Virus record (IMG/VR): IMGVR_UViG_3300020045_015401
Coordinates: 1-45,280 of that record
Length of the DNA stretch: 45,280 nt
Origin: a virus
Lineage: Duplodnaviria; Caudoviricetes
Direction: 5' to 3' (one strand)
Under the pieces are notes generated by a model. The model did no database searches, was not told the origin of the DNA, and was given only the letters and a program-made list of their open reading frames with translations. A program made the position numbers and the translations under genes. How positions within the stretch are numbered: position 1 is the first letter of the stretch; every line of letters begins with the position of its first letter. Positions 132 through 45,280 of this stretch are shown here, one piece after another.

Positions 132-1427
132 ATGTCAAATTCACGAAAAAGTTCACAATGGAATTGTTATGATAATGAAATCAAGAGAATACTAGAAGAA
201 AATGAAGGGATTGAAGCAATAGAAGTAGTAAATAAATTAGAAATACCATTAGAAAGATTAGAAAAGGGGCAGTTTTCAAGGTACATCAGGAGGAATATAA
301 GTAGGTTGTTAGATAGTGAGATTAAGAAGTTTGAAGCATATCAAGATTTTGAAAATGAAACTACAACTGAAACAAATCAGTATGATTCTCGCAAAGGATT
401 TACAGCAATTTCTTCTTCGGGAGGAATAATGGATATTAAAAAGTATTGTGAGTTTTACAAGTTTGATTATGATACTGTAAAGAGTTGGAAATTAGTTTCA
501 CATACAGGAGTTCCGTTTTATAATATCGCTTTTTACAGCCCTGAAGAACAAGACGAAAAAAGTTATTTAGAGATAAAAGAAATCCTAACAAGGGAATTTG
601 ATAAGGTAATTAAGCATACTTCTACTTTCGTTAAAGGTAGTGAAATAGCAAATATTATTATTGGCGACCCACATTTAGGAGCGTACATCGACGGATTAGT
701 AAATACAAAAGATTTTTCAATCCCAATTCTAATAGATTATTTAGAAGAAATTGTAGCAAAAGTAAATAAGAGAGGGTTCAAGGAAGTCAACGTAATGTTC
801 CTTGGAGATATGATTGAGAGTTTTACCGGATTAAACCACAAAAACTCTTGGAAAGGATTGCAAAAAGGAATGATTGGGGCAGAAGTAATTAAGTTTTCAG
901 TTAAGATTTGGCACGAAAAATTTCTTTCTAAATTAAACAATTTAAGAAAAGTGAAACTTGTTGCAGGAAATCACGATAGGCTTACTTCGGATAAAGACGA
1001 AGACGTTGACGGAGGTGCTGCTGATTTAATCTCTTTTGGACTAGAATTATTAGGATATGATATTGAGTTCCACCCAACTGTAATATCTTGCGAAATAGAC
1101 GGAATAAACTATATTCTACTTCACGGACATAAAGGAATAAGCAGGAAACCCACAAAGGATATTTGTTGGGATTTTGGTAAAAAAGGAATATTTAATGTAA
1201 TACTTGAAGGGCATTTACATTCTATCATACAGAATTTAAGTGTAAATATGAGAGGAAAGTTCAATATTCTGAAAGACGATTCTGTTGACCATATAAGAAT
1301 GCACGCCAGGAGTTTGTTTACAGGAAATGGATATAGTGAGGATTTAGGGTTTACATCAAATGCAGGGTTCTCGATAATTACAAATAATGGAAAAGGACTT
1401 CCTGATATTGATAATAAATTATTATGA
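132..1427 (+). CDS. Calcineurin-like metallophosphoesterase with N-terminal extension
   Basis: All five metallophosphoesterase motifs in order: GDPH, GDMIE, AGNHD, LLHGH, EGHLH. Confidence 0.85.
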   Translation: MSNSRKSSQWNCYDNEIKRILEENEGIEAIEVVNKLEIPLERLEKGQFSRYIRRNISRLLDSEIKKFEAYQDFENETTTETNQYDSRKGFTAISSSGGIMDIKKYCEFYKFDYDTVKSWKLVSHTGVPFYNIAFYSPEEQDEKSYLEIKEILTREFDKVIKHTSTFVKGSEIANIIIGDPHLGAYIDGLVNTKDFSIPILIDYLEEIVAKVNKRGFKEVNVMFLGDMIESFTGLNHKNSWKGLQKGMIGAEVIKFSVKIWHEKFLSKLNNLRKVKLVAGNHDRLTSDKDEDVDGGAADLISFGLELLGYDIEFHPTVISCEIDGINYILLHGHKGISRKPTKDICWDFGKKGIFNVILEGHLHSIIQNLSVNMRGKFNILKDDSVDHIRMHARSLFTGNGYSEDLGFTSNAGFSIITNNGKGLPDIDNKLL

Positions 1428-1636
1428 GCGATATAACAAAATGCACGGGCAAAGAGTGTCCTGTAAAAAATAAGTGCTACAGATTCACAGCAAAATCAAG
1501 TGATTATATGCAATCATTTTTTACTATTCCTCCAATAAAAGAGGGTAAATGTGACATGTATTGGGGTGAAAAATCAGAAAGTATATTTAATCAGTTAAAA
1601 GACATTACAAATGGCAAAAGCAAAGATAACATTTGA
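1424..1636 (+). CDS. Small Cys-rich phage protein
   Basis: 70 aa, ATGA overlap with the upstream stop, pattern DITKC-x4-CP-x4-CYRF common in small phage proteins. Confidence 0.65.
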   Translation: MSDITKCTGKECPVKNKCYRFTAKSSDYMQSFFTIPPIKEGKCDMYWGEKSESIFNQLKDITNGKSKDNI

Positions 1637-3878: not shown

Positions 3879-3893
3879 ACTTTTTTAAAACAT

Positions 3894-3979
3894 AAAACCC
3901 CATAATTCAAACAGGCTTCGACATCTGTTATCCTTATGAGGCTTTTGTTATTTTTTAATTTTAGTTACTCTGTCGAAGC
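3894..3979 (-). promoter_or_regulatory. Structured 5' leader (putative attenuator) of the MTase-HNH cassette
   Basis: Hairpin arms 3894-3905/3934-3946 with inner stem 3910-3914/3925-3929; loop 3915-3923 is perfectly complementary to 3971-3979 (9 bp). Confidence 0.6.
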
Positions 3980-3987
3980 ATAACTTA

Positions 3988-4032
3988 GGCAAAGATAAGG
4001 AAACTATTTCACATAATTGGAAACTATTTCCA
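3988..4032 (-). promoter_or_regulatory. 45-bp promoter/operator element, copy 1 (identical to 17681-17725)
   Basis: Minus strand TGGAAATAGTTTCCAATTATGTGAAATAGTTTCCTTATCTTTGCC: two GAAA-TAG-TTTC palindromes and a TATCTTTG -7 box. Confidence 0.8.
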
Positions 4033-4058: not shown

Positions 4059-4100
4059 AAACGACACTAAATATTTGTTGTCGTTAAATTTATACCTTTG
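4059..4100 (+). promoter_or_regulatory. Late-type promoter 1: 28-bp palindromic operator plus -7 box
   Basis: AAACGACACTAAA-TA-TTTGTTGTCGTTA (4059-4086), 6 bp spacer, TACCTTTG (4093-4100). Confidence 0.75.
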
Positions 4101-6247: not shown

Positions 6248-8896
6248 ATGAAAGGCTTAAGTGAAGACATAGAATTTGCCATTAAGGATTCCCTACAAGG
6301 GATGGAGCTTAACGTTGATATATCAAAGGTCAACGATGAGAAATTGTCTGCGCTTGTGAAATCCAGAATTGAATCTTTCATTGCGATAAAAGAACTTTTA
6401 GTTACTTGGCAAAACTCACCGAACGCACCAAGTCACGAAAAACTAAGAAATTATATCATTGAACTTGTATCAATAGGGAATAACTCGATTGATGTATTAC
6501 GTAAAGCATTAAAAAAAGAGATAAATTTTGAAGATTTAGATGCCGAGAAATACGGAACAGCTATCCGTTCAAAACCTCTTTTACTTAAAGCGATTACCGA
6601 CATTAATGCGGGAAACATCGAGTTGCAAAACCAAATTGACGCCGATAAGTTCGACCTCCAAGAACGGGAATTCAAAAGAGGTTATCCTGAAAAGTTTGCC
6701 AACCAAGAGTTTTTACCCTTAAAAAAATATCACAAAGAATGGTATGATGCTGAAACCGATAGCGTAATGATTTGTCCATTAGGAACAAAAGGCGAAATTA
6801 TTACCCTTGACGGGCTGAATATAATGCTTCCTAAAAAGCCAAAACGTACCGAGATACTTTTCGAAAAATACGCTCCTGCCGAACAATATTGGAGAAGACA
6901 GGAAATGCCGAAAGGTTTGACTCCCGATACAGAAGAAGCTTTTGCATATTACATAGTAAAGGAATACAAACGCCGTAGAGAAGGCGTTTGGTTTATGAAT
7001 AACGGACAGGCAGTTTACATTACTCCCGAACATTATATGGGGTTACAATGGAACCAAATGGCTGATACAGGAGGTTATAAAGACTTTCGTATGGCGCAAG
7101 CGAATATGTATTATTTCGCTAAGGCTTGCCTTATTGATAAAAGAAGTATTGGAATGTTCTTCACTAAAGGTCGTCGTACAGGATTTACGGAAATGGCATT
7201 AGACCACTTGGTAGAATTATCAACTACAACCAAAAATCAAAAGATAGGTATTACTTCGAAATCCGATGCGGATGCGATGGTAGCCTTCCAAAAATATTCG
7301 TATGTAATTCAGAATTTACCTTTCTTTTTCCAACCCGTTGTGAAGGGAAAAATTGACGATGTAAAGAAAATGGTATTTGGTAAACCTTCAGATAATTCAA
7401 GGGCGGCCAAAAAGAACAAAGATACTTCTACGGCTGATTATTTAAACACTACAGTTGATTACAGAGCCACAGCGATACTTTCTTATGACTCCGTGAAACT
7501 GAATATGTATTTAGGTGATGAAGCCTCAAAATGGGAGCATTTAAGCTATTTAGCACATTGGATGAATATTAAACCTACAATGATTCAAGGGGGTAGAGTA
7601 GTAGGGAAATCATTTATTGGTTCCACTTTAAATCCATTAGCAAAAGGGGGAAGTGATTTTAAATTAATGGATGTAGGTTCAAATGTATTGAAACGAAACG
7701 ACAACGGACGAACTACCACAGGATTGTATGCTTATTTCTTACCCGCACATCATAACGCAGAGGATTACACCGATAAATATGGGGTTTGCCACGCCGTAGT
7801 AGAAAAAGGAAAAAGTTTTGTAAATGCACAAGGGGAATTAAAACTATACGGTTCATTACAGTATTTAGAAAATGAATTTAAGTCAGCCCGAATGATGGGT
7901 GAAAAAAACTATTGGAATGCAAGACGTTTAGACCCAATTACCAAGGCAGATGCTTTTCGTGACGAGTCTGTTTCTACCATATTTGACCAACAGAAAATAA
8001 ACGACCAATTAGACTATAACGAAACCTACGAAATAAATAAAACTCTAGTTAGAGGCAATTTTGAATGGGAAGATAATATTCCTGATTCAAGAGTTCTTTG
8101 GAAACCAATGGCTAAAGGAAGGTTTTTAGTGAGTTGGATTCCTCCTGTAGAAATGAGGAACAAATGGGAAATCAAAAGAAACGAGTTCGGCCACGTTTCA
8201 AAGCATCCTGGCAATGATGATTTAGGAGCGTTTGGAGTCGATACCTATGACCAAGATTCTACGCAGGGAAGTCAACTTCAAGAAACAGAAAACGGATCGG
8301 AACACAGCGAAGGTTCGAAAGGTGCATTTATAGGGCTTACCCGTACTACAATGAAAGATGCTCCAAGCAATTCATTTATTGTAGAATACATTACAAGACC
8401 ACAAACCGCAGAGATATTCTTCGAGGATTGCTTAATGGCGGCGGTGTTTTACGGAATGCCTTGTTTGATTGAGAATAACAAAACTCGATTCTTGCTACAC
8501 TTTAGAAACCGTGGTTATAGAGGATATTCCATACATCGTTTTGATAAACCGATGAATAAACTTTCGCAAACTGAAAAAGATTTGGGAGGCGTACCGAGTT
8601 CAGGAGTAGATATTATCACACAGCATTGGACAGGAATAGAAACCTACATCGATAAATACGTTGGAAACTATACCCAAGGACAAAACTTGCACCCTGTAAG
8701 AGTTGAGGGCGAAATGGGAAGTATGCCTTTTGACAGAACGCTTCGAGATTGGGCGAGATTTAATGTAGCCAAAAGAACAGAATTTGATGCTACAATCGCT
8801 TCGGGATATGCGATAATGGCCGTAAACAGAAAACCATATTTAGCTCCGTCGGGGCCAAAAAAACCAGTACAAATAAAATTTCAAACATACTCATAA
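6248..8896 (+). CDS. terL: Terminase large subunit with a long helical N-terminal extension
   Basis: Terminase Walker A KGRRTGFT, Walker B YLGDEASKW, motif III GST, RNase H-type FGVDTYD and C-terminal FDATIASG; directly upstream of the portal. ATG 6248 is preferred over TTG 6239, which lies inside the -7 box. Confidence 0.88.
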   Translation: MKGLSEDIEFAIKDSLQGMELNVDISKVNDEKLSALVKSRIESFIAIKELLVTWQNSPNAPSHEKLRNYIIELVSIGNNSIDVLRKALKKEINFEDLDAEKYGTAIRSKPLLLKAITDINAGNIELQNQIDADKFDLQEREFKRGYPEKFANQEFLPLKKYHKEWYDAETDSVMICPLGTKGEIITLDGLNIMLPKKPKRTEILFEKYAPAEQYWRRQEMPKGLTPDTEEAFAYYIVKEYKRRREGVWFMNNGQAVYITPEHYMGLQWNQMADTGGYKDFRMAQANMYYFAKACLIDKRSIGMFFTKGRRTGFTEMALDHLVELSTTTKNQKIGITSKSDADAMVAFQKYSYVIQNLPFFFQPVVKGKIDDVKKMVFGKPSDNSRAAKKNKDTSTADYLNTTVDYRATAILSYDSVKLNMYLGDEASKWEHLSYLAHWMNIKPTMIQGGRVVGKSFIGSTLNPLAKGGSDFKLMDVGSNVLKRNDNGRTTTGLYAYFLPAHHNAEDYTDKYGVCHAVVEKGKSFVNAQGELKLYGSLQYLENEFKSARMMGEKNYWNARRLDPITKADAFRDESVSTIFDQQKINDQLDYNETYEINKTLVRGNFEWEDNIPDSRVLWKPMAKGRFLVSWIPPVEMRNKWEIKRNEFGHVSKHPGNDDLGAFGVDTYDQDSTQGSQLQETENGSEHSEGSKGAFIGLTRTTMKDAPSNSFIVEYITRPQTAEIFFEDCLMAAVFYGMPCLIENNKTRFLLHFRNRGYRGYSIHRFDKPMNKLSQTEKDLGGVPSSGVDIITQHWTGIETYIDKYVGNYTQGQNLHPVRVEGEMGSMPFDRTLRDWARFNVAKRTEFDATIASGYAIMAVNRKPYLAPSGPKKPVQIKFQTYS

Positions 8897-14112: not shown

Positions 14113-14145
14113 AAAAAGCGGATAACTTCAAGGCTATCCGCTTTT
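14113..14145 (-). terminator. Intrinsic terminator of the tRNA transcript
   Basis: Minus strand GCGGATAGC...GTTATCCGC-TTTTT; the G.U pair works only on the minus strand. Confidence 0.8.
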
Positions 14146-14221
14146 AGATTTGTTTTCTCCGAATGGAAGAATCAACTCGTTTACTTGCCGACTAGGTGAT
14201 ACCCTAATCCTTTTGCAACAG
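14113..14221 (-). ncRNA. tRNA 3'-trailer RNA, candidate antisense regulator of leader 17594-17673
   Basis: Lies between the tRNA 3' end and a terminator; blocks 14201-14210, 14193-14199 and 14182-14188 are reverse complements of 17632-17641, 17645-17651 and 17663-17669. Confidence 0.55.
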
Positions 14222-14295
14222 TAGCACTAGCAGGACTCGAACCTGCGACCTCAAGGATATGAGCCTTGCGAGATACCAACTTCTACCATAGTGCG
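14222..14295 (-). tRNA. tRNA-Met(CAT), initiator (fMet)-type
   Basis: CGCACTA...TAGTGCT-A acceptor with unpaired C1/U72; anticodon arm CAAGG-CTCATAT-CCTTG; T arm GCAGG-TTCGAGT-CCTGC; CCA not encoded. Confidence 0.88.
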
Positions 14296-14298
14296 AAG

Positions 14299-14329
14299 CA
14301 AAGATATAAAAAAAATAAACGACAACAAA
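14299..14329 (-). promoter_or_regulatory. Bacteroidota sigma-A-type promoter of the tRNA/trailer transcript
   Basis: Minus strand TTTG (14326-14329), 19 bp spacer, TATCTTTG (14299-14306). Confidence 0.75.
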
Positions 14330-14358
14330 CGTTTGTAAACGAATAAAATCTACTTTTG
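14317..14358 (+). promoter_or_regulatory. Late-type promoter 3 (scaffold-capsid operon)
   Basis: AAACGACAACAAA-CG-TTTGTAAACGAAT (14317-14344), 6 bp spacer, TACTTTTG (14351-14358). Confidence 0.75.
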
Positions 14359-14388
14359 TACTAATAAATCAAATCAAATCAAAATATT

Positions 14389-15501
14389 ATGCCACAAGAC
14401 GAGAATATAATTCCCGAAGCGGAAGTAGTTGCGGTAGAAAATCAGGAGCCTACAATATCATTTGCACCGGTTACAGAAGAAGATAATATCATTATTCCTG
14501 CTGCCGAAACTGAAATTCCTATACAGGAAGAAGTTGTAGAGCAAGTAGCCGAGCAAGTTACCGAGCAAGTAGAAGAAGAATATGAAGCAGTAGAGCTTGA
14601 CGAGGATTTAGCCATAAAATATTTGGCAGAATCGAAAGGAATGACGGTTGAGGAATTTCAGGATTCATTAACCCCAAAAGAGCAAAAAAAATACGCTCCT
14701 GCAATGGAGAAATTCAACGAGTTCATTGAAAAAACAGGAAATACAAATTACAACGACTTCTTAGAAACACAGAAGGATTGGGGTGCAGAAAGTGAAGAAA
14801 GTAGATTAAGAAGCTACATCAAACTTTCAAATCCTAATTATTCTGATAAACAAGTAAATAGGTATTATGATAAAAATTATAGTACCGAAGGACTTGATGA
14901 AGATATTGACGAAGACGAAATCCTCGATAGAGGAATGAATCGAACAGACGATTTGAAGAAAGCCGATGCGTTTTTCGACAAACGAAAAGAAGAATTTAAT
15001 GCCGTTGGAGGGTCTGACGAGCATATTCCGATTGAGTATCGAGAAGCAAAAAAAGCGATTGACAATCAAGAGAAACAAGAAGAAGAGTTTTTTGCAAAAT
15101 TAAACGGTCAAAGAAATGATTTTGTTTCAAGAACCGAATCTTTTTTTTCCAACAATTTTGAAGGGTTCAAAGTTCAATTGGGAGACAAAGAAACAGGGTT
15201 TGAAGATTTTACTATTAAACCAGAAAATCTTAATGAAATAAAAGAATTTCAACTTAGCTCTAACAATAGAGAGAATGAGTTGATAGACAAGGAAACGGGA
15301 CTAATAAAAAATATAGAAGAATACCATATATCAAAATATATGGAGAGAAACTATAAAACTGAACTGAATAAAGCCTACCAAAGAGGACGAGCAAAAGAAC
15401 TCGAAATCCAAGACAAGGTTTCAAAAAATATTCAACCGGACAATATTAGAACCATACCAAGTATTGGCGCATCTGGAGTTTCGTTTACGAAGGAAAACTA
15501 A
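14389..15501 (+). CDS. Capsid scaffolding protein
   Basis: 370 aa, very acidic N-terminus, helical, directly upstream of the major capsid gene. Confidence 0.7.
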   Translation: MPQDENIIPEAEVVAVENQEPTISFAPVTEEDNIIIPAAETEIPIQEEVVEQVAEQVTEQVEEEYEAVELDEDLAIKYLAESKGMTVEEFQDSLTPKEQKKYAPAMEKFNEFIEKTGNTNYNDFLETQKDWGAESEESRLRSYIKLSNPNYSDKQVNRYYDKNYSTEGLDEDIDEDEILDRGMNRTDDLKKADAFFDKRKEEFNAVGGSDEHIPIEYREAKKAIDNQEKQEEEFFAKLNGQRNDFVSRTESFFSNNFEGFKVQLGDKETGFEDFTIKPENLNEIKEFQLSSNNRENELIDKETGLIKNIEEYHISKYMERNYKTELNKAYQRGRAKELEIQDKVSKNIQPDNIRTIPSIGASGVSFTKEN

Positions 15502-15551: not shown

Positions 15552-16892
15552 ATGGGAGCAATAGCAGGAACACCCGCAGTAAGATACACGCCAAGTGCGA
15601 CTAAAGTACCTACAGCAGCGAATTATTTAGATTTGACCGACTTGGATTATTTTGACCACCAATTGCCTGATTTAGACAAAACGCTAAACAGACGATACGG
15701 GACTCAAATGATTGACGGTTTCTTCGAAAAAACAGGACGTAAAATTCCTTATGCAAGTGACGTTATCACTTGGACGGAAGAAGACAGATTAACTCAACTT
15801 GCCACAGGAGTAGCACGTGTAGGAGATGTATTTACATTGGCCGACCATACTTTTAGAGTAGGTGAAGTTATCCAAGCCTTCTTACCTGATGGAACAATTT
15901 CAAGAAAAGGTAGAATCTCCGCTACAACTTCAACTACTTTCACCGCATCTTGTGGTCAAGCAGCAGGTTGGACAGCATTGGGAGCTACAGGAATTTCTTG
16001 TTTCGCCGATACTTCTGAATTCTTGAAAGGTTCAGCAGGGATGCAAGAATCATTGAATACCAAATACCAACAATACACAACTCGTGGTACTATCACAAAA
16101 GAGATGGTTAGCGAGAACCGTACAAATATGACTCAAATTTCTTGGTTGAAAGCCACTGATAATACTTCAGGAAATACATTAGGTTATATTTGGTATGACG
16201 TAAACAAAGACAATACCGAAAGACGTTTCAGAAACAAAGTAGAGTCTGCTCACTTTAATTCAGAAACTTGGGCGGGTGATTTACTTGCCGCAGGGTACAA
16301 AGGTCGTCAAGGTTTGCTTTCTGCAATGGGAGAAGGAAACATCTTCGCAGGAACAATCGCTGACTTTGCATCTGCCGAAAGTTTGATTGACCGTTTGGAA
16401 AAACAAGGCCAATTAAGAGACAACATCATCTACGGAACAACTGCTTTCTGTTTCGCTATTGATAAGTTCTTAGCTTCTACCAATGTAACAACTGGTTCTG
16501 CTTACGGACAATTCAACAACGATAAGAAAATGGCGCTTGACCTATCTTTCCAAGGATATTGCTTAGGTGGATATGATTTCACATATTCTCCCCTACAATA
16601 CCTAAAAGAAGCAACTGCTCAAGGGGCTATCACAGGAGTTTCTAAAGTAAATGGTTTCTTGATTCCGTCTGCTTCTCAATCAGTGGTAGATCCAATGCAA
16701 GGTACTCCATCTGTGAAACCGATGATTCACGTGAGAAATAGAGCCTATGGTGCTATGAATCGTGATTACGAATTAGTATGCAGAGATTGGCTACAAGGGA
16801 CTAGCTTAACCGATACTATCACTACAGAGTTCCAAAATGAATCGGCGACTGTTTTGATAGGGCGTAACAACACTGTTAAATTTCAGGGCTAA
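15552..16892 (+). CDS. Major capsid protein
   Basis: 446 aa after the scaffold, followed by a strong terminator; ITWTEEDRL and GRQGLLSAM motifs typical of HK97-fold capsids of Bacteroidota podoviruses; distinct codon bias. Confidence 0.82.
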   Translation: MGAIAGTPAVRYTPSATKVPTAANYLDLTDLDYFDHQLPDLDKTLNRRYGTQMIDGFFEKTGRKIPYASDVITWTEEDRLTQLATGVARVGDVFTLADHTFRVGEVIQAFLPDGTISRKGRISATTSTTFTASCGQAAGWTALGATGISCFADTSEFLKGSAGMQESLNTKYQQYTTRGTITKEMVSENRTNMTQISWLKATDNTSGNTLGYIWYDVNKDNTERRFRNKVESAHFNSETWAGDLLAAGYKGRQGLLSAMGEGNIFAGTIADFASAESLIDRLEKQGQLRDNIIYGTTAFCFAIDKFLASTNVTTGSAYGQFNNDKKMALDLSFQGYCLGGYDFTYSPLQYLKEATAQGAITGVSKVNGFLIPSASQSVVDPMQGTPSVKPMIHVRNRAYGAMNRDYELVCRDWLQGTSLTDTITTEFQNESATVLIGRNNTVKFQG

Positions 16893-16909: not shown

Positions 16910-16937
16910 AAAACCCACTCAATCGAGTGGGTTTTTT
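16910..16937. terminator. Intrinsic terminator after the capsid gene
   Basis: AAAACCCACTC-aatc-GAGTGGGTTTTTT. Confidence 0.85.
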
Positions 16938-17575
16938 GTTTTAATACTTTCAATATGCTTTTCATGAGCTAATAAATAAGCATTATAGGCATCAATTTCA
17001 CTTACAAAAGTACCTAAATGAATAGTTTTTCTTTCTATAACGATAAAAGCCCTCCATTTCATTGAACTTTTATGCCAACTAACGCCTTTGTATTGTGAGG
17101 AATAAGTACTTTTAATAACTTCTATTTCTAAATTGTTTTCAATGCTATAAAGAGCCTTTTCATATTGATTTGATGCTTCTATTTCAGAATCAAAAAAACC
17201 TAATAATATTGTTTTCCCGTTATAACTTATTGCAGACCTCCATTTATTTAATTTTTTATCCCAAGAAACTCCAGTGTATAAAGATGAAGATTTTATATGT
17301 TTTTTATTACTATTAACTCTATTAGTTACAATCCTAAAATTGTCAAATCTATTATTCATTTTATTTAAGTCAATATGGTCTACGACTAATTCGTGTCCAC
17401 AAGGAGTATGATCTAAAAAATTAATAGCAACGAGTACGTGTACTCCCCAATATTCTATTTTACCATTTTTAGATAATGTAGCACGTTTATATTTATTATT
17501 TACGGATGTTTTTAATAAATGTGTAGTTCCGGTATTCATTCCGTTAAATAATGAAATTACATTTATTGGTCTCAT
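16919..17575 (-). CDS. HNH endonuclease with two AP2 domains; N-terminus resembles C5-methyltransferase motif I
   Basis: HNH core VHVLVA...VVDHIDLNKMNNRFDNFRIVTNRVN; AP2 repeats SSLYTGVSWDKKLNKWRSAI and SSQYKGVSWHKSSMKWRAFI; N-terminal MRPINVISLFNGMNTG. Confidence 0.85.
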   Translation of the reverse strand: MRPINVISLFNGMNTGTTHLLKTSVNNKYKRATLSKNGKIEYWGVHVLVAINFLDHTPCGHELVVDHIDLNKMNNRFDNFRIVTNRVNSNKKHIKSSSLYTGVSWDKKLNKWRSAISYNGKTILLGFFDSEIEASNQYEKALYSIENNLEIEVIKSTYSSQYKGVSWHKSSMKWRAFIVIERKTIHLGTFVSEIDAYNAYLLAHEKHIESIKTKNPLD

Positions 17576-17593
17576 AAATATTATTTAAAAAGA

Positions 17594-17673
17594 AAACCCC
17601 TAAAGAGCCACTACGCATCTTTAAGGGTTTCGGATTAGGGTGTTTCACCTATTTATCTTACCGCAAGTAGTGG
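17594..17673 (-). promoter_or_regulatory. Structured 5' leader (putative attenuator) of the HNH-AP2 cassette
   Basis: Hairpin 17594-17606/17618-17630 followed on the minus strand by a T-tract; loop 17608-17614 is complementary to 17667-17673. Confidence 0.6.
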
Positions 17674-17680
17674 ATTGCTT

Positions 17681-17725
17681 GGCAAAGATAAGGAAACTAT
17701 TTCACATAATTGGAAACTATTTCCA
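17681..17725 (-). promoter_or_regulatory. 45-bp promoter/operator element, copy 2 (identical to 3988-4032)
   Basis: Exact 45/45 direct repeat containing the -7 box TATCTTTG on the minus strand. Confidence 0.8.
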
Positions 17726-17749
17726 AAAACTGCAAAGGTTTCACGTTTT

Positions 17750-43611: not shown

Positions 43612-43880
43612 TTCGATTTATTGATTAGATTATAAACTTCAATAGCGTTTTGCTTTTCATCTGCGGGTAAAAAATGAACTTTATAGGTATAAGAATTACC
43701 GTGTTTATTTACATCCGTTTCCGCTTTGTGAAATAGTTTCACATTGTGTTCGAGAGATAATTCACTTATTCTGGTTCGAAATCCGGCTAAGTATGGGAAA
43801 TCTTTCAAAGAAGTACATCCTTTTGCGATAAGTGCATAAAGCACCTCTGCCCTGTTGTTAATTGGCGTTGTTAATTCCAT
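43608..43880 (-). CDS. Winged-helix DNA-binding protein
   Basis: AEVLYALI...FRTRISELS..H followed by a beta-hairpin (NKHGNSYTYKVHFL). Confidence 0.65.
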   Translation of the reverse strand: MELTTPINNRAEVLYALIAKGCTSLKDFPYLAGFRTRISELSLEHNVKLFHKAETDVNKHGNSYTYKVHFLPADEKQNAIEVYNLINKSK

Positions 43881-45215: not shown

Positions 45216-45280
45216 ATGAAAAATCGATATTCTACCCCAAAAATTGTAAAAGCAGAAAAAGGATGGTACGTTTATTTCAG
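45216..45280 (+). CDS. Probable tyrosine integrase, N-terminus only (truncated by window end)
   Basis: MKNRYSTPKIVKAEKGWYVYF; WYVYF arm-binding-domain pattern of Bacteroidota integrases; adjacent to attP-like site. Confidence 0.55.
   Translation, partial: MKNRYSTPKIVKAEKGWYVYF

Follow-up and report, generated by a model that had tools for sequence, protein, structure and literature searches.

A ~41-nt insert in the 3′ trailer of a phage tRNA-Met gene is complementary to a conserved attenuator-like leader RNA encoded 3.4 kb away, upstream of an accessory HNH-AP2 gene. The complementarity, the covarying structure of the leader and the modular make-up of the small-RNA cassette stand as observations. 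From folding models, the insert may act in trans as an antisense brake on the HNH-AP2 gene, with the tRNA merely a neighbour in the cassette; we put this reading forward tentatively, as plausible rather than probable.

Genomic setting

The window, that is, the whole stretch of DNA analysed, is a whole linear virus record of 45,280 nt with a completeness estimate of 60%. We infer a host among the Flavobacteriia from the capsid-type protein, which is 34% identical to a structural protein of Flavobacterium phage Elemo, and from the GenBank matches (n = 85), nearly all of which are Flavobacterium and Cellulophaga phages. A search of three Bacteroidota genomes with the leader model described below gave no match, and the capsid profile found one weak match among 301 genomes of the class, so that neither a host nor a prophage was pinned down. 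A temperate lifestyle is suggested because an HTH repressor-like gene lies close to the right end of the record. The record end itself (45217-45280) cuts the start of an ORF that we take to resemble the N-terminus of a Bacteroidota integrase.

Both partner RNAs are encoded on the minus strand, inside a plus-strand morphogenesis region. Between them lie a putative scaffold gene, labelled from its position (14389-15501, plus strand), and the major capsid-type gene (15552-16892, plus strand). The trailer cassette and the leader cassette each stand back-to-back with one copy of a conserved element found before late genes (14316-14382, plus strand; repeat family D2), which may serve as a late promoter and whose copies in the window lie at 4059, 6200, 14317, 17750, 19684 and 25312. 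Insertion back-to-back with this element was observed for accessory cassettes in this phage group.

A conserved attenuator-like leader precedes the HNH-AP2 gene

The HNH-AP2 gene (16919-17575, minus strand) encodes a protein of 218 aa with an HNH_3 domain and two AP2 domains (Pfam) and forms a cassette after the major capsid gene. The cassette is accessory, because it is missing from the close relatives L001 and L012 and because one sequencing-run contig joins its flanks (16922 to 17747). The promoter region of the leader (17683-17726, minus strand) contains a -7-type element at 17683-17690 and, upstream of it, two operator-like palindromes that may function as operators. With the spacing given for such promoters in the part of PMC6847099 used here, transcription is predicted to start at the first base of hairpin 1. 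This hairpin (17663-17678, minus strand) holds the element X (17667-17673) in its loop, on a 4-bp stem that is invariant in nine aligned leaders. Hairpin 2 (17636-17651, minus strand), in place of which L107, L200 and L203 have other hairpins, is followed by a 13-bp terminator hairpin (17594-17630, minus strand) with a U-rich tail, and the terminator loop carries X′ (17608-17614), which is complementary to X.

In the nine-sequence alignment of the leader, 97.6% of cells pair. The X:X′ helix is 100% paired, with three of its seven pairs changed on both sides, and the terminator is 97% paired, with eight of 13 pairs changed in this way. The pair-change counts of both helices were reached by none of 500 shuffles, a figure that is not to be taken as a probability, as the sequences are related. 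A model built from the nine copies gave 12 matches at E <0.001 in 100 sources; beyond the window, these comprised 11 copies in 10 other records, one copy being truncated. Rfam contained no above-threshold match at the trailer or the leader, and the search of GenBank phages for the leader returned nothing but two irrelevant Staphylococcus hits. The leader combines two of the features by which an attenuator is recognised, namely an intrinsic terminator between promoter and start codon and a conserved alternative helix (X:X′) that competes with the terminator. X:X′ may instead coexist with the terminator as a loop-loop pseudoknot. The leader is a conserved attenuator-like two-state structure, and this result is solid regardless of the fate of the trailer.

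At six of the eight other loci examined, the cargo after the leader is a NUMOD4 protein, an HNH protein or both, with a small unknown gene intervening in L003; the exceptions are a helicase in L028 and a protein without assignment in L107. A remnant was also seen at L114:9782-9972, where this leader (family A) is fused directly to the 3′ remnant of an HNH gene and the terminator and most of the gene are deleted. The window itself has a second leader of the same architecture with another X/X′ family (3879-3997, minus strand), located before a DNA methyltransferase gene and a NUMOD4-HNH gene. The two leaders, although of different families, share an identical 45-nt promoter block (3988-4032 and 17681-17725) that carries both operator-like palindromes, and the palindrome recurs a third time within an early gene (43727-43741). 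The design of X in a hairpin loop and X′ in the terminator loop recurs with about ten other X/X′ sequences, mostly before HNH-like genes; the leader detector yielded 34 candidates, including some duplicates, of which two were dropped as false. Further leader families were noted, for example, in L165, L166, L183, L207, L211, L213, L214 and L216, as well as three in G019. Before large tRNA clusters in L012, L145, L163, L169, L183 and L204, short leaders recur that have a terminator and a start resembling a tiny ORF.

The tRNA-Met cassette and its trailer

A sequence-only reading of this DNA had described a minus-strand cassette ordered as promoter, tRNA, trailer and terminator, and this order was recovered in full, coordinates included. 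The promoter has a -7-type element of the Bacteroidota kind (14299-14306, minus strand), recognised by sequence and kept in position in six aligned relatives. The spacing between element and start for Bacteroidota -7-type promoters, as far as PMC6847099 was drawn on, places the predicted start of transcription 1-2 nt or less from the 5′ end of the tRNA. The tRNA-Met(CAT) gene (14221-14295, minus strand; ARAGORN; Rfam RF00005, 48.2 bits) has no encoded CCA. Initiator tRNAs are distinguished by a CAT anticodon, an unpaired 1:72 position and three G-C pairs in the anticodon stem; the phage tRNA is initiator-like, having the CAT anticodon, the unpaired 1:72 position and two of the three G-C pairs. 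Position 38 of its anticodon loop is U in the window and A in the six aligned relatives. Changes in the anticodon loops of phage tRNAs have been proposed as evasion of host nucleases in the portion of PMC10264068 considered here.

Three parts make up the trailer, namely the ~41-nt insert, a hairpin (S) that is constant among cassettes and a terminator that hardly varies. The insert (module C; 14178-14218, minus strand), which is the candidate antisense guide, is variable and is predicted to fold into a hairpin of 7 bp at 14190-14209. Hairpin S (14146-14177, minus strand) is 100% paired in seven sequences, with three of six pairs changed on both sides. The intrinsic terminator (14113-14145, minus strand), recognised by folding, is nearly invariant among seven aligned cassettes. 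Duplex prediction points to a possible fourth, imperfect block between the first 11 nt of hairpin S and the 5′ end of the leader; in the cofold, these 11 nt are predicted to remain folded. The idea that the constant hairpin serves as a general guide for leader family A was dropped, as the binding comparison did not support it.

Eleven further cassettes (L114 and L139 counted once) have hairpin S and the terminator at this genomic site. The site is highly variable: across the 11 cassettes, it is occupied by tRNAs and by no fewer than four other types of module. Six of them start with tRNA-Met or a degenerate form of it; five of these run straight into S without an insert, and the sixth, L134, has a different insert at the same place. 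The remaining five carry other structured modules and no tRNA.

Several further elements were noted in these phages. Hairpin S and the terminator also occur near position 10001 of L141, in a different context, at the end of a protein gene. The small-RNA cassette upstream of the scaffold gene in L181 contains a permuted tmRNA (Rfam RF04321, 52.8 bits; 8470-8692, minus strand), and a stretch that looks similar by eye is present in L186 (about 1330-1570, plus strand). The tRNA-like RNAs at L117:6035-6148, L186:1581-1695, L181:8326-8433 and L188:5997-6092 have long variable inserts replacing the anticodon arm and are classed as tRNA by Rfam and not by ARAGORN.

The insert is complementary to the leader in three blocks

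The three perfect colinear blocks of 10, 7 and 7 nt noticed earlier by eye, with both partners on the minus strand, were confirmed at their positions. Block 1 (14201-14210) pairs with leader positions 17632-17641 over 10 nt and block 2 (14193-14199) with 17645-17651 over 7 nt, both being directed at hairpin 2. Block 3 (14182-14188) pairs over 7 nt with 17663-17669, which covers the 3′ end of X and the 3′ arm of hairpin 1. Block 3 shares 3 nt with X, and a single nucleotide separates block 1 from the stem of the leader terminator, in agreement with the first description of both contacts.

Ranked by duplex energy, the leader comes first among 4,508 windows as a non-self target of the trailer (-36.1; next -32.9). 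Net binding after self-folding was -16.8 kcal/mol and the mean of shuffled controls was -5.3, none of 200 shuffles being as strong; the pairing thus passed the comparison with shuffles that the sequence-only reading had made its first check. In a scan of 1.84 Mb of related phage DNA by block count, 24 nt in three blocks was reached by three of 96,079 windows, two of which are the trailer itself, and 23 nt by 21 of 96,079. Gapped alignment ranked the trailer-leader pair first among 840 comparisons of cassette, leader and orientation (z 6.85; next 5.0), and the raw alignment score was tied by one of 18 other records. In an accessibility-aware genome scan of 3,344 windows, the trailer came second and third, behind a window antisense to a coding gene. 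When 203 mostly non-coding windows were compared, the top three binders were all trailer (-17.7, -17.3 and -14.5; next -12.2).

As a blind genome-wide hit the match is borderline, and given its position in a non-coding RNA on the right strand it is strong. Small hairpins that share a stem, in AT-rich DNA and spotted by eye among many comparisons, could match by chance: one background window equals the match in each of three genome-scale scans, and hairpin symmetry supplies part of it, since four of the 24 paired bases come free where both RNAs are hairpins with the same 4-bp stem. However, non-coding transcribed segments are very few, and the match falls in one of them and on the right strand; it spans the regulatory 5′ half of the conserved leader exactly, its per-window frequency is about 1 in 100,000, and coincidence is in our judgement quite improbable.

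Among nine members of the leader family, the trailer bound its own leader best (-16.8 versus -5.5 to -12.7), and the mean z was -3.65 for leader family A (11 members) versus -0.07 for 19 other leaders. Net binding to leaders of other phages reached -12.7 for L036 and -10.7 for L003. When partners of 16 leaders were sought in their own records by alignment, only the pair in the window stood out; the best hits for the other leaders were AT-rich stretches.

Predicted effect on termination and the place of the tRNA

When the growing leader transcript was folded, X:X′ with a short extension had the lowest energy at lengths of 76-80 nt, and from 84 nt onwards the terminator did. In the cofold with bound trailer, the X:X′ helix was lost and the terminator was untouched. 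In the favoured reading, both RNAs would be made from -7-type promoters at overlapping times. X would pair with X′ in the nascent leader before the 3′ arm of the terminator exists, which is predicted to allow some read-through. On the nascent leader, the insert would open hairpin 2 together with the 3′ side of hairpin 1, and once bound it would prevent X:X′ and leave the terminator intact and free to close. Termination would be favoured and HNH-AP2 expression would be lowered, with the tRNA as a neighbour in a modular small-RNA cassette and not a needed processing handle. The original proposal that the trailer blocks the anti-terminator and silences the gene is supported by folding in its predicted direction; a fixed system is not supported by the records examined.

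That proposal had also made the tRNA a processing handle, and in the strict version tRNA 3′ processing would be required to release the active trailer RNA. A tRNA without an encoded CCA must undergo 3′ trimming, which would in any case free the trailer. L134 has its different insert at the same place behind tRNA-Met, and a regulatory tRNA 3′ spacer is known from E. coli, according to the part of PMC8166272 used. Against the strict version, the uncut precursor is predicted to bind as well as the trailer (-18.4 versus -18.6, with a 56-nt nascent leader), no RNase P processing being needed for the predicted binding; the insert homolog in L006 has no tRNA, and five of the six related tRNA-Met cassettes have no insert. 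On these three points the handle lacks support, and we consider required processing improbable.

Once terminated, the full-length leader is predicted to bind the trailer no less well than it does in nascent form (-19.3). This would also suit the reverse polarity, with regulation by the short RNA that termination in the leader leaves and the trailer as the sponge or target of that RNA, and a tRNA 3′ spacer that acts as a sponge for sRNAs is reported in the consulted part of PMC8166272. The leader, however, always lies shortly before a protein gene and covaries internally, as would fit a role in cis, and the reversed arrangement is very improbable.

The insert is rare and was not found together with the leader in other records

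Among the 11 other cassettes, a homolog of the insert was found only in L006, with no tRNA in front of it. It is diverged, and its hairpin is kept through changed pairs. Because of this diverged, tRNA-less homolog, the insert is older than the genome in the window and independent of the tRNA. The duplex of the L006 homolog with the leader of the window (-35.6, z -4.4) has the same pairing register as the window's own insert. Its net binding (-7.6, with 47 of 200 shuffles as strong) is no better than that of shuffles, because the homolog folds tightly on itself.

Exact-pattern scans found no second trailer of this type in viral contigs, where 51 stretches were leaders, a coding motif or chance, or in GTDB, where all 13 stretches look like chance; of nine stretches matching a looser pattern, only that in the L006 record was real. 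A BLAST-type search for the trailer in five records gave no match and was insensitive, since one of them, G005, holds the homolog, which also escaped blastn of the insert over 1.84 Mb. Contigs from four DNA sequencing runs cover parts of the stretch and none extends over the insert, a result that is uninformative either way. Among the sequencing runs listed for this DNA there was no RNA run.

The expectation that trailer and leader would occur together and covary in relatives was not borne out, as no second record with both partners was found. The insert was absent from five leader-bearing records in which the site is in view (L005, L045, L107, L114 and G011). In G011, which is complete and has two leader copies, non-coding windows bound these copies with at best -11.5 and -12.7 (648 windows for each), which is not comparable to the trailer, in a test that could miss short loop-loop contacts. 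Conversely, the L006 record (41.6 kb, 55% complete) has the insert and no leader-A match, and the second leader of the window (3879-3997) has no evident partner RNA. Since most leader-bearing relatives are without the insert, we infer that the brake would be an optional add-on.

The same distribution brings in a serious rival to the antisense brake, namely that the insert is a functionless relic, an inverted, loop-shortened piece of leader captured at a recombination-prone cassette site and kept as a harmless hairpin. The cassette site is highly variable, the partners were not found together elsewhere, and the window trailer, the L006 trailer and the antisense strand of the leader align over four blocks, as if by descent; the changes in L006 can also be explained by the keeping of its own hairpin. 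On the other hand, the insert best matches the leader variant of its own genome, including 4 nt that differ in other family members, the deletions fall between the paired blocks and never inside them, and the L006 homolog is diverged yet still complementary. We rate the relic as somewhat unlikely.

A second, unrelated type of trailer occupies the same genomic site behind tRNA-like RNA in the distant relatives L117, L120, L186 and L188. These near-identical trailers have a 10-nt match to hairpin 1 of the leader (net -12.4, 0 of 200 shuffles as strong) and a mean z of about -2.2, which we count in favour of the antisense brake; among 17 cassette 3′ segments, 11 had no preference for leader family A. 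Two further best pairings were those of L006 module B with a copy of leader A (-12.2, best of 180) and of the L134 insert with another leader family, found in another genome (-13.1, best of 120; mean -4.9, sd 2.5). All three are single comparisons among many. At L134:4500-4535, pairing of 19 of 21 nt with hairpin 1 near L214 1950-1975 was noted, without a shuffle control. A covariation between module A and leader family B that had been seen by eye was absent among the top binders.

Such matches might mean that the inserts mainly target leaders of co-infecting relatives and silence their accessory nucleases. Leader-complementary segments do occur in records without a visible leader (L006, L117, L120, L186 and L188), the trailer of the window also binds the leaders of L036 and L003, and the L134 insert prefers a leader family from elsewhere. 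These five records are fragments, though, and may simply lack their own targets for that reason; the L134 match comes from many comparisons and has no shuffle control, and a z of -4.4 was also obtained between L181 and an unrelated leader. We give this heteroimmunity only a small chance. A broader version of the antisense brake, which we regard as doubtful, would have swappable cassette guides antisense to the whole class of loop-loop attenuator leaders before HNH and other accessory genes, the modular cassette comprising a promoter, guide modules often behind a tRNA or tRNA-like RNA, the constant hairpin and the terminator. It rests on single comparisons. What it would amount to, an RNA-only, reprogrammable policing of selfish nuclease cassettes in the phage's own genome and in co-infecting relatives, is a speculative suggestion.

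Comparison with known systems

If the brake works, it would be a case of trans-encoded antisense attenuation in Bacteroidota phages, of which the open-access literature, judged by titles and the openings of abstracts, yielded no description; the sequence-only reading, too, was aware of no described tRNA-trailer antisense or attenuator system in these phages. It would also provide a trans factor for a widespread and unexplained class of leader RNAs before mobile HNH genes, and, for Flavobacterium, a small pair of parts made up of a 41-nt guide and a ~105-nt leader.

The predicted mechanism resembles the RNAIII-type attenuation of plasmids pT181 and pIP501, in which an antisense RNA prevents an anti-terminator helix and the terminator forms. 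The plasmid RNAs are cis-encoded and fully complementary to their targets, whereas the trailer is trans-encoded and offers 24 to about 33 paired bases in blocks.

In phage P4, the small CI RNA base-pairs in several separate blocks with a leader that is still being made and brings about premature termination, as described in the part of PMC4825925 consulted. The trailer is likewise complementary to a leader in blocks, with termination here being predicted by cofolding only. According to the same account, CI (seqA/seqC) is cut from the very leader that it controls and governs essential replication genes, whereas the trailer lies in a separate cassette 3.4 kb away and its target is an accessory HNH gene. 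Unlike CI, the insert is absent from most of the leader-bearing relatives examined.

C4 RNA of P1/P7 (RF01695), in the portions of PMC5320573 and PMC2864571 used, is a multi-block antisense RNA to a phage leader with a tRNA-processing context and a variable specificity region; the trailer resembles it in its putative block pairing, its tRNA context and its variable insert. C4 itself, as characterised there, is a three-stem RNase P substrate, whereas the guide of the trailer lies 3′ of a real tRNA; C4 partly occludes the ribosome-binding site, whereas the blocks of the trailer end 57 nt before the start codon; and C4 targets the leader upstream of an antirepressor operon, whereas the trailer targets that of HNH-AP2. 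C4 pairs through guide loops, whereas blocks 1 and 2 of the trailer are largely guide hairpin stem. The taxa listed for C4 in these sources are Proteobacteria and their phages. At E up to 1, Rfam matched the window four times, once with the tRNA and three times with unrelated families below threshold; RF01695 was not among them. Membership in the C4 or P4 CI families was rejected, as the trailer has no Rfam match, lies outside the leader and off the ribosome-binding site and is not conserved with its target; related motifs could exist among the supplementary motifs of PMC2864571 that have no Rfam entries.

In E. coli, the leuZ 3′ external transcribed spacer, encoded on the chromosome, acts as a sponge for sRNAs and depends on Hfq, as presented in the part of PMC8166272 used. 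The phage trailer is like it in being the 3′ trailer of a tRNA with a (here putative) base-pairing regulatory role, and differs from it in carrying a phage insert that is complementary to an mRNA leader.
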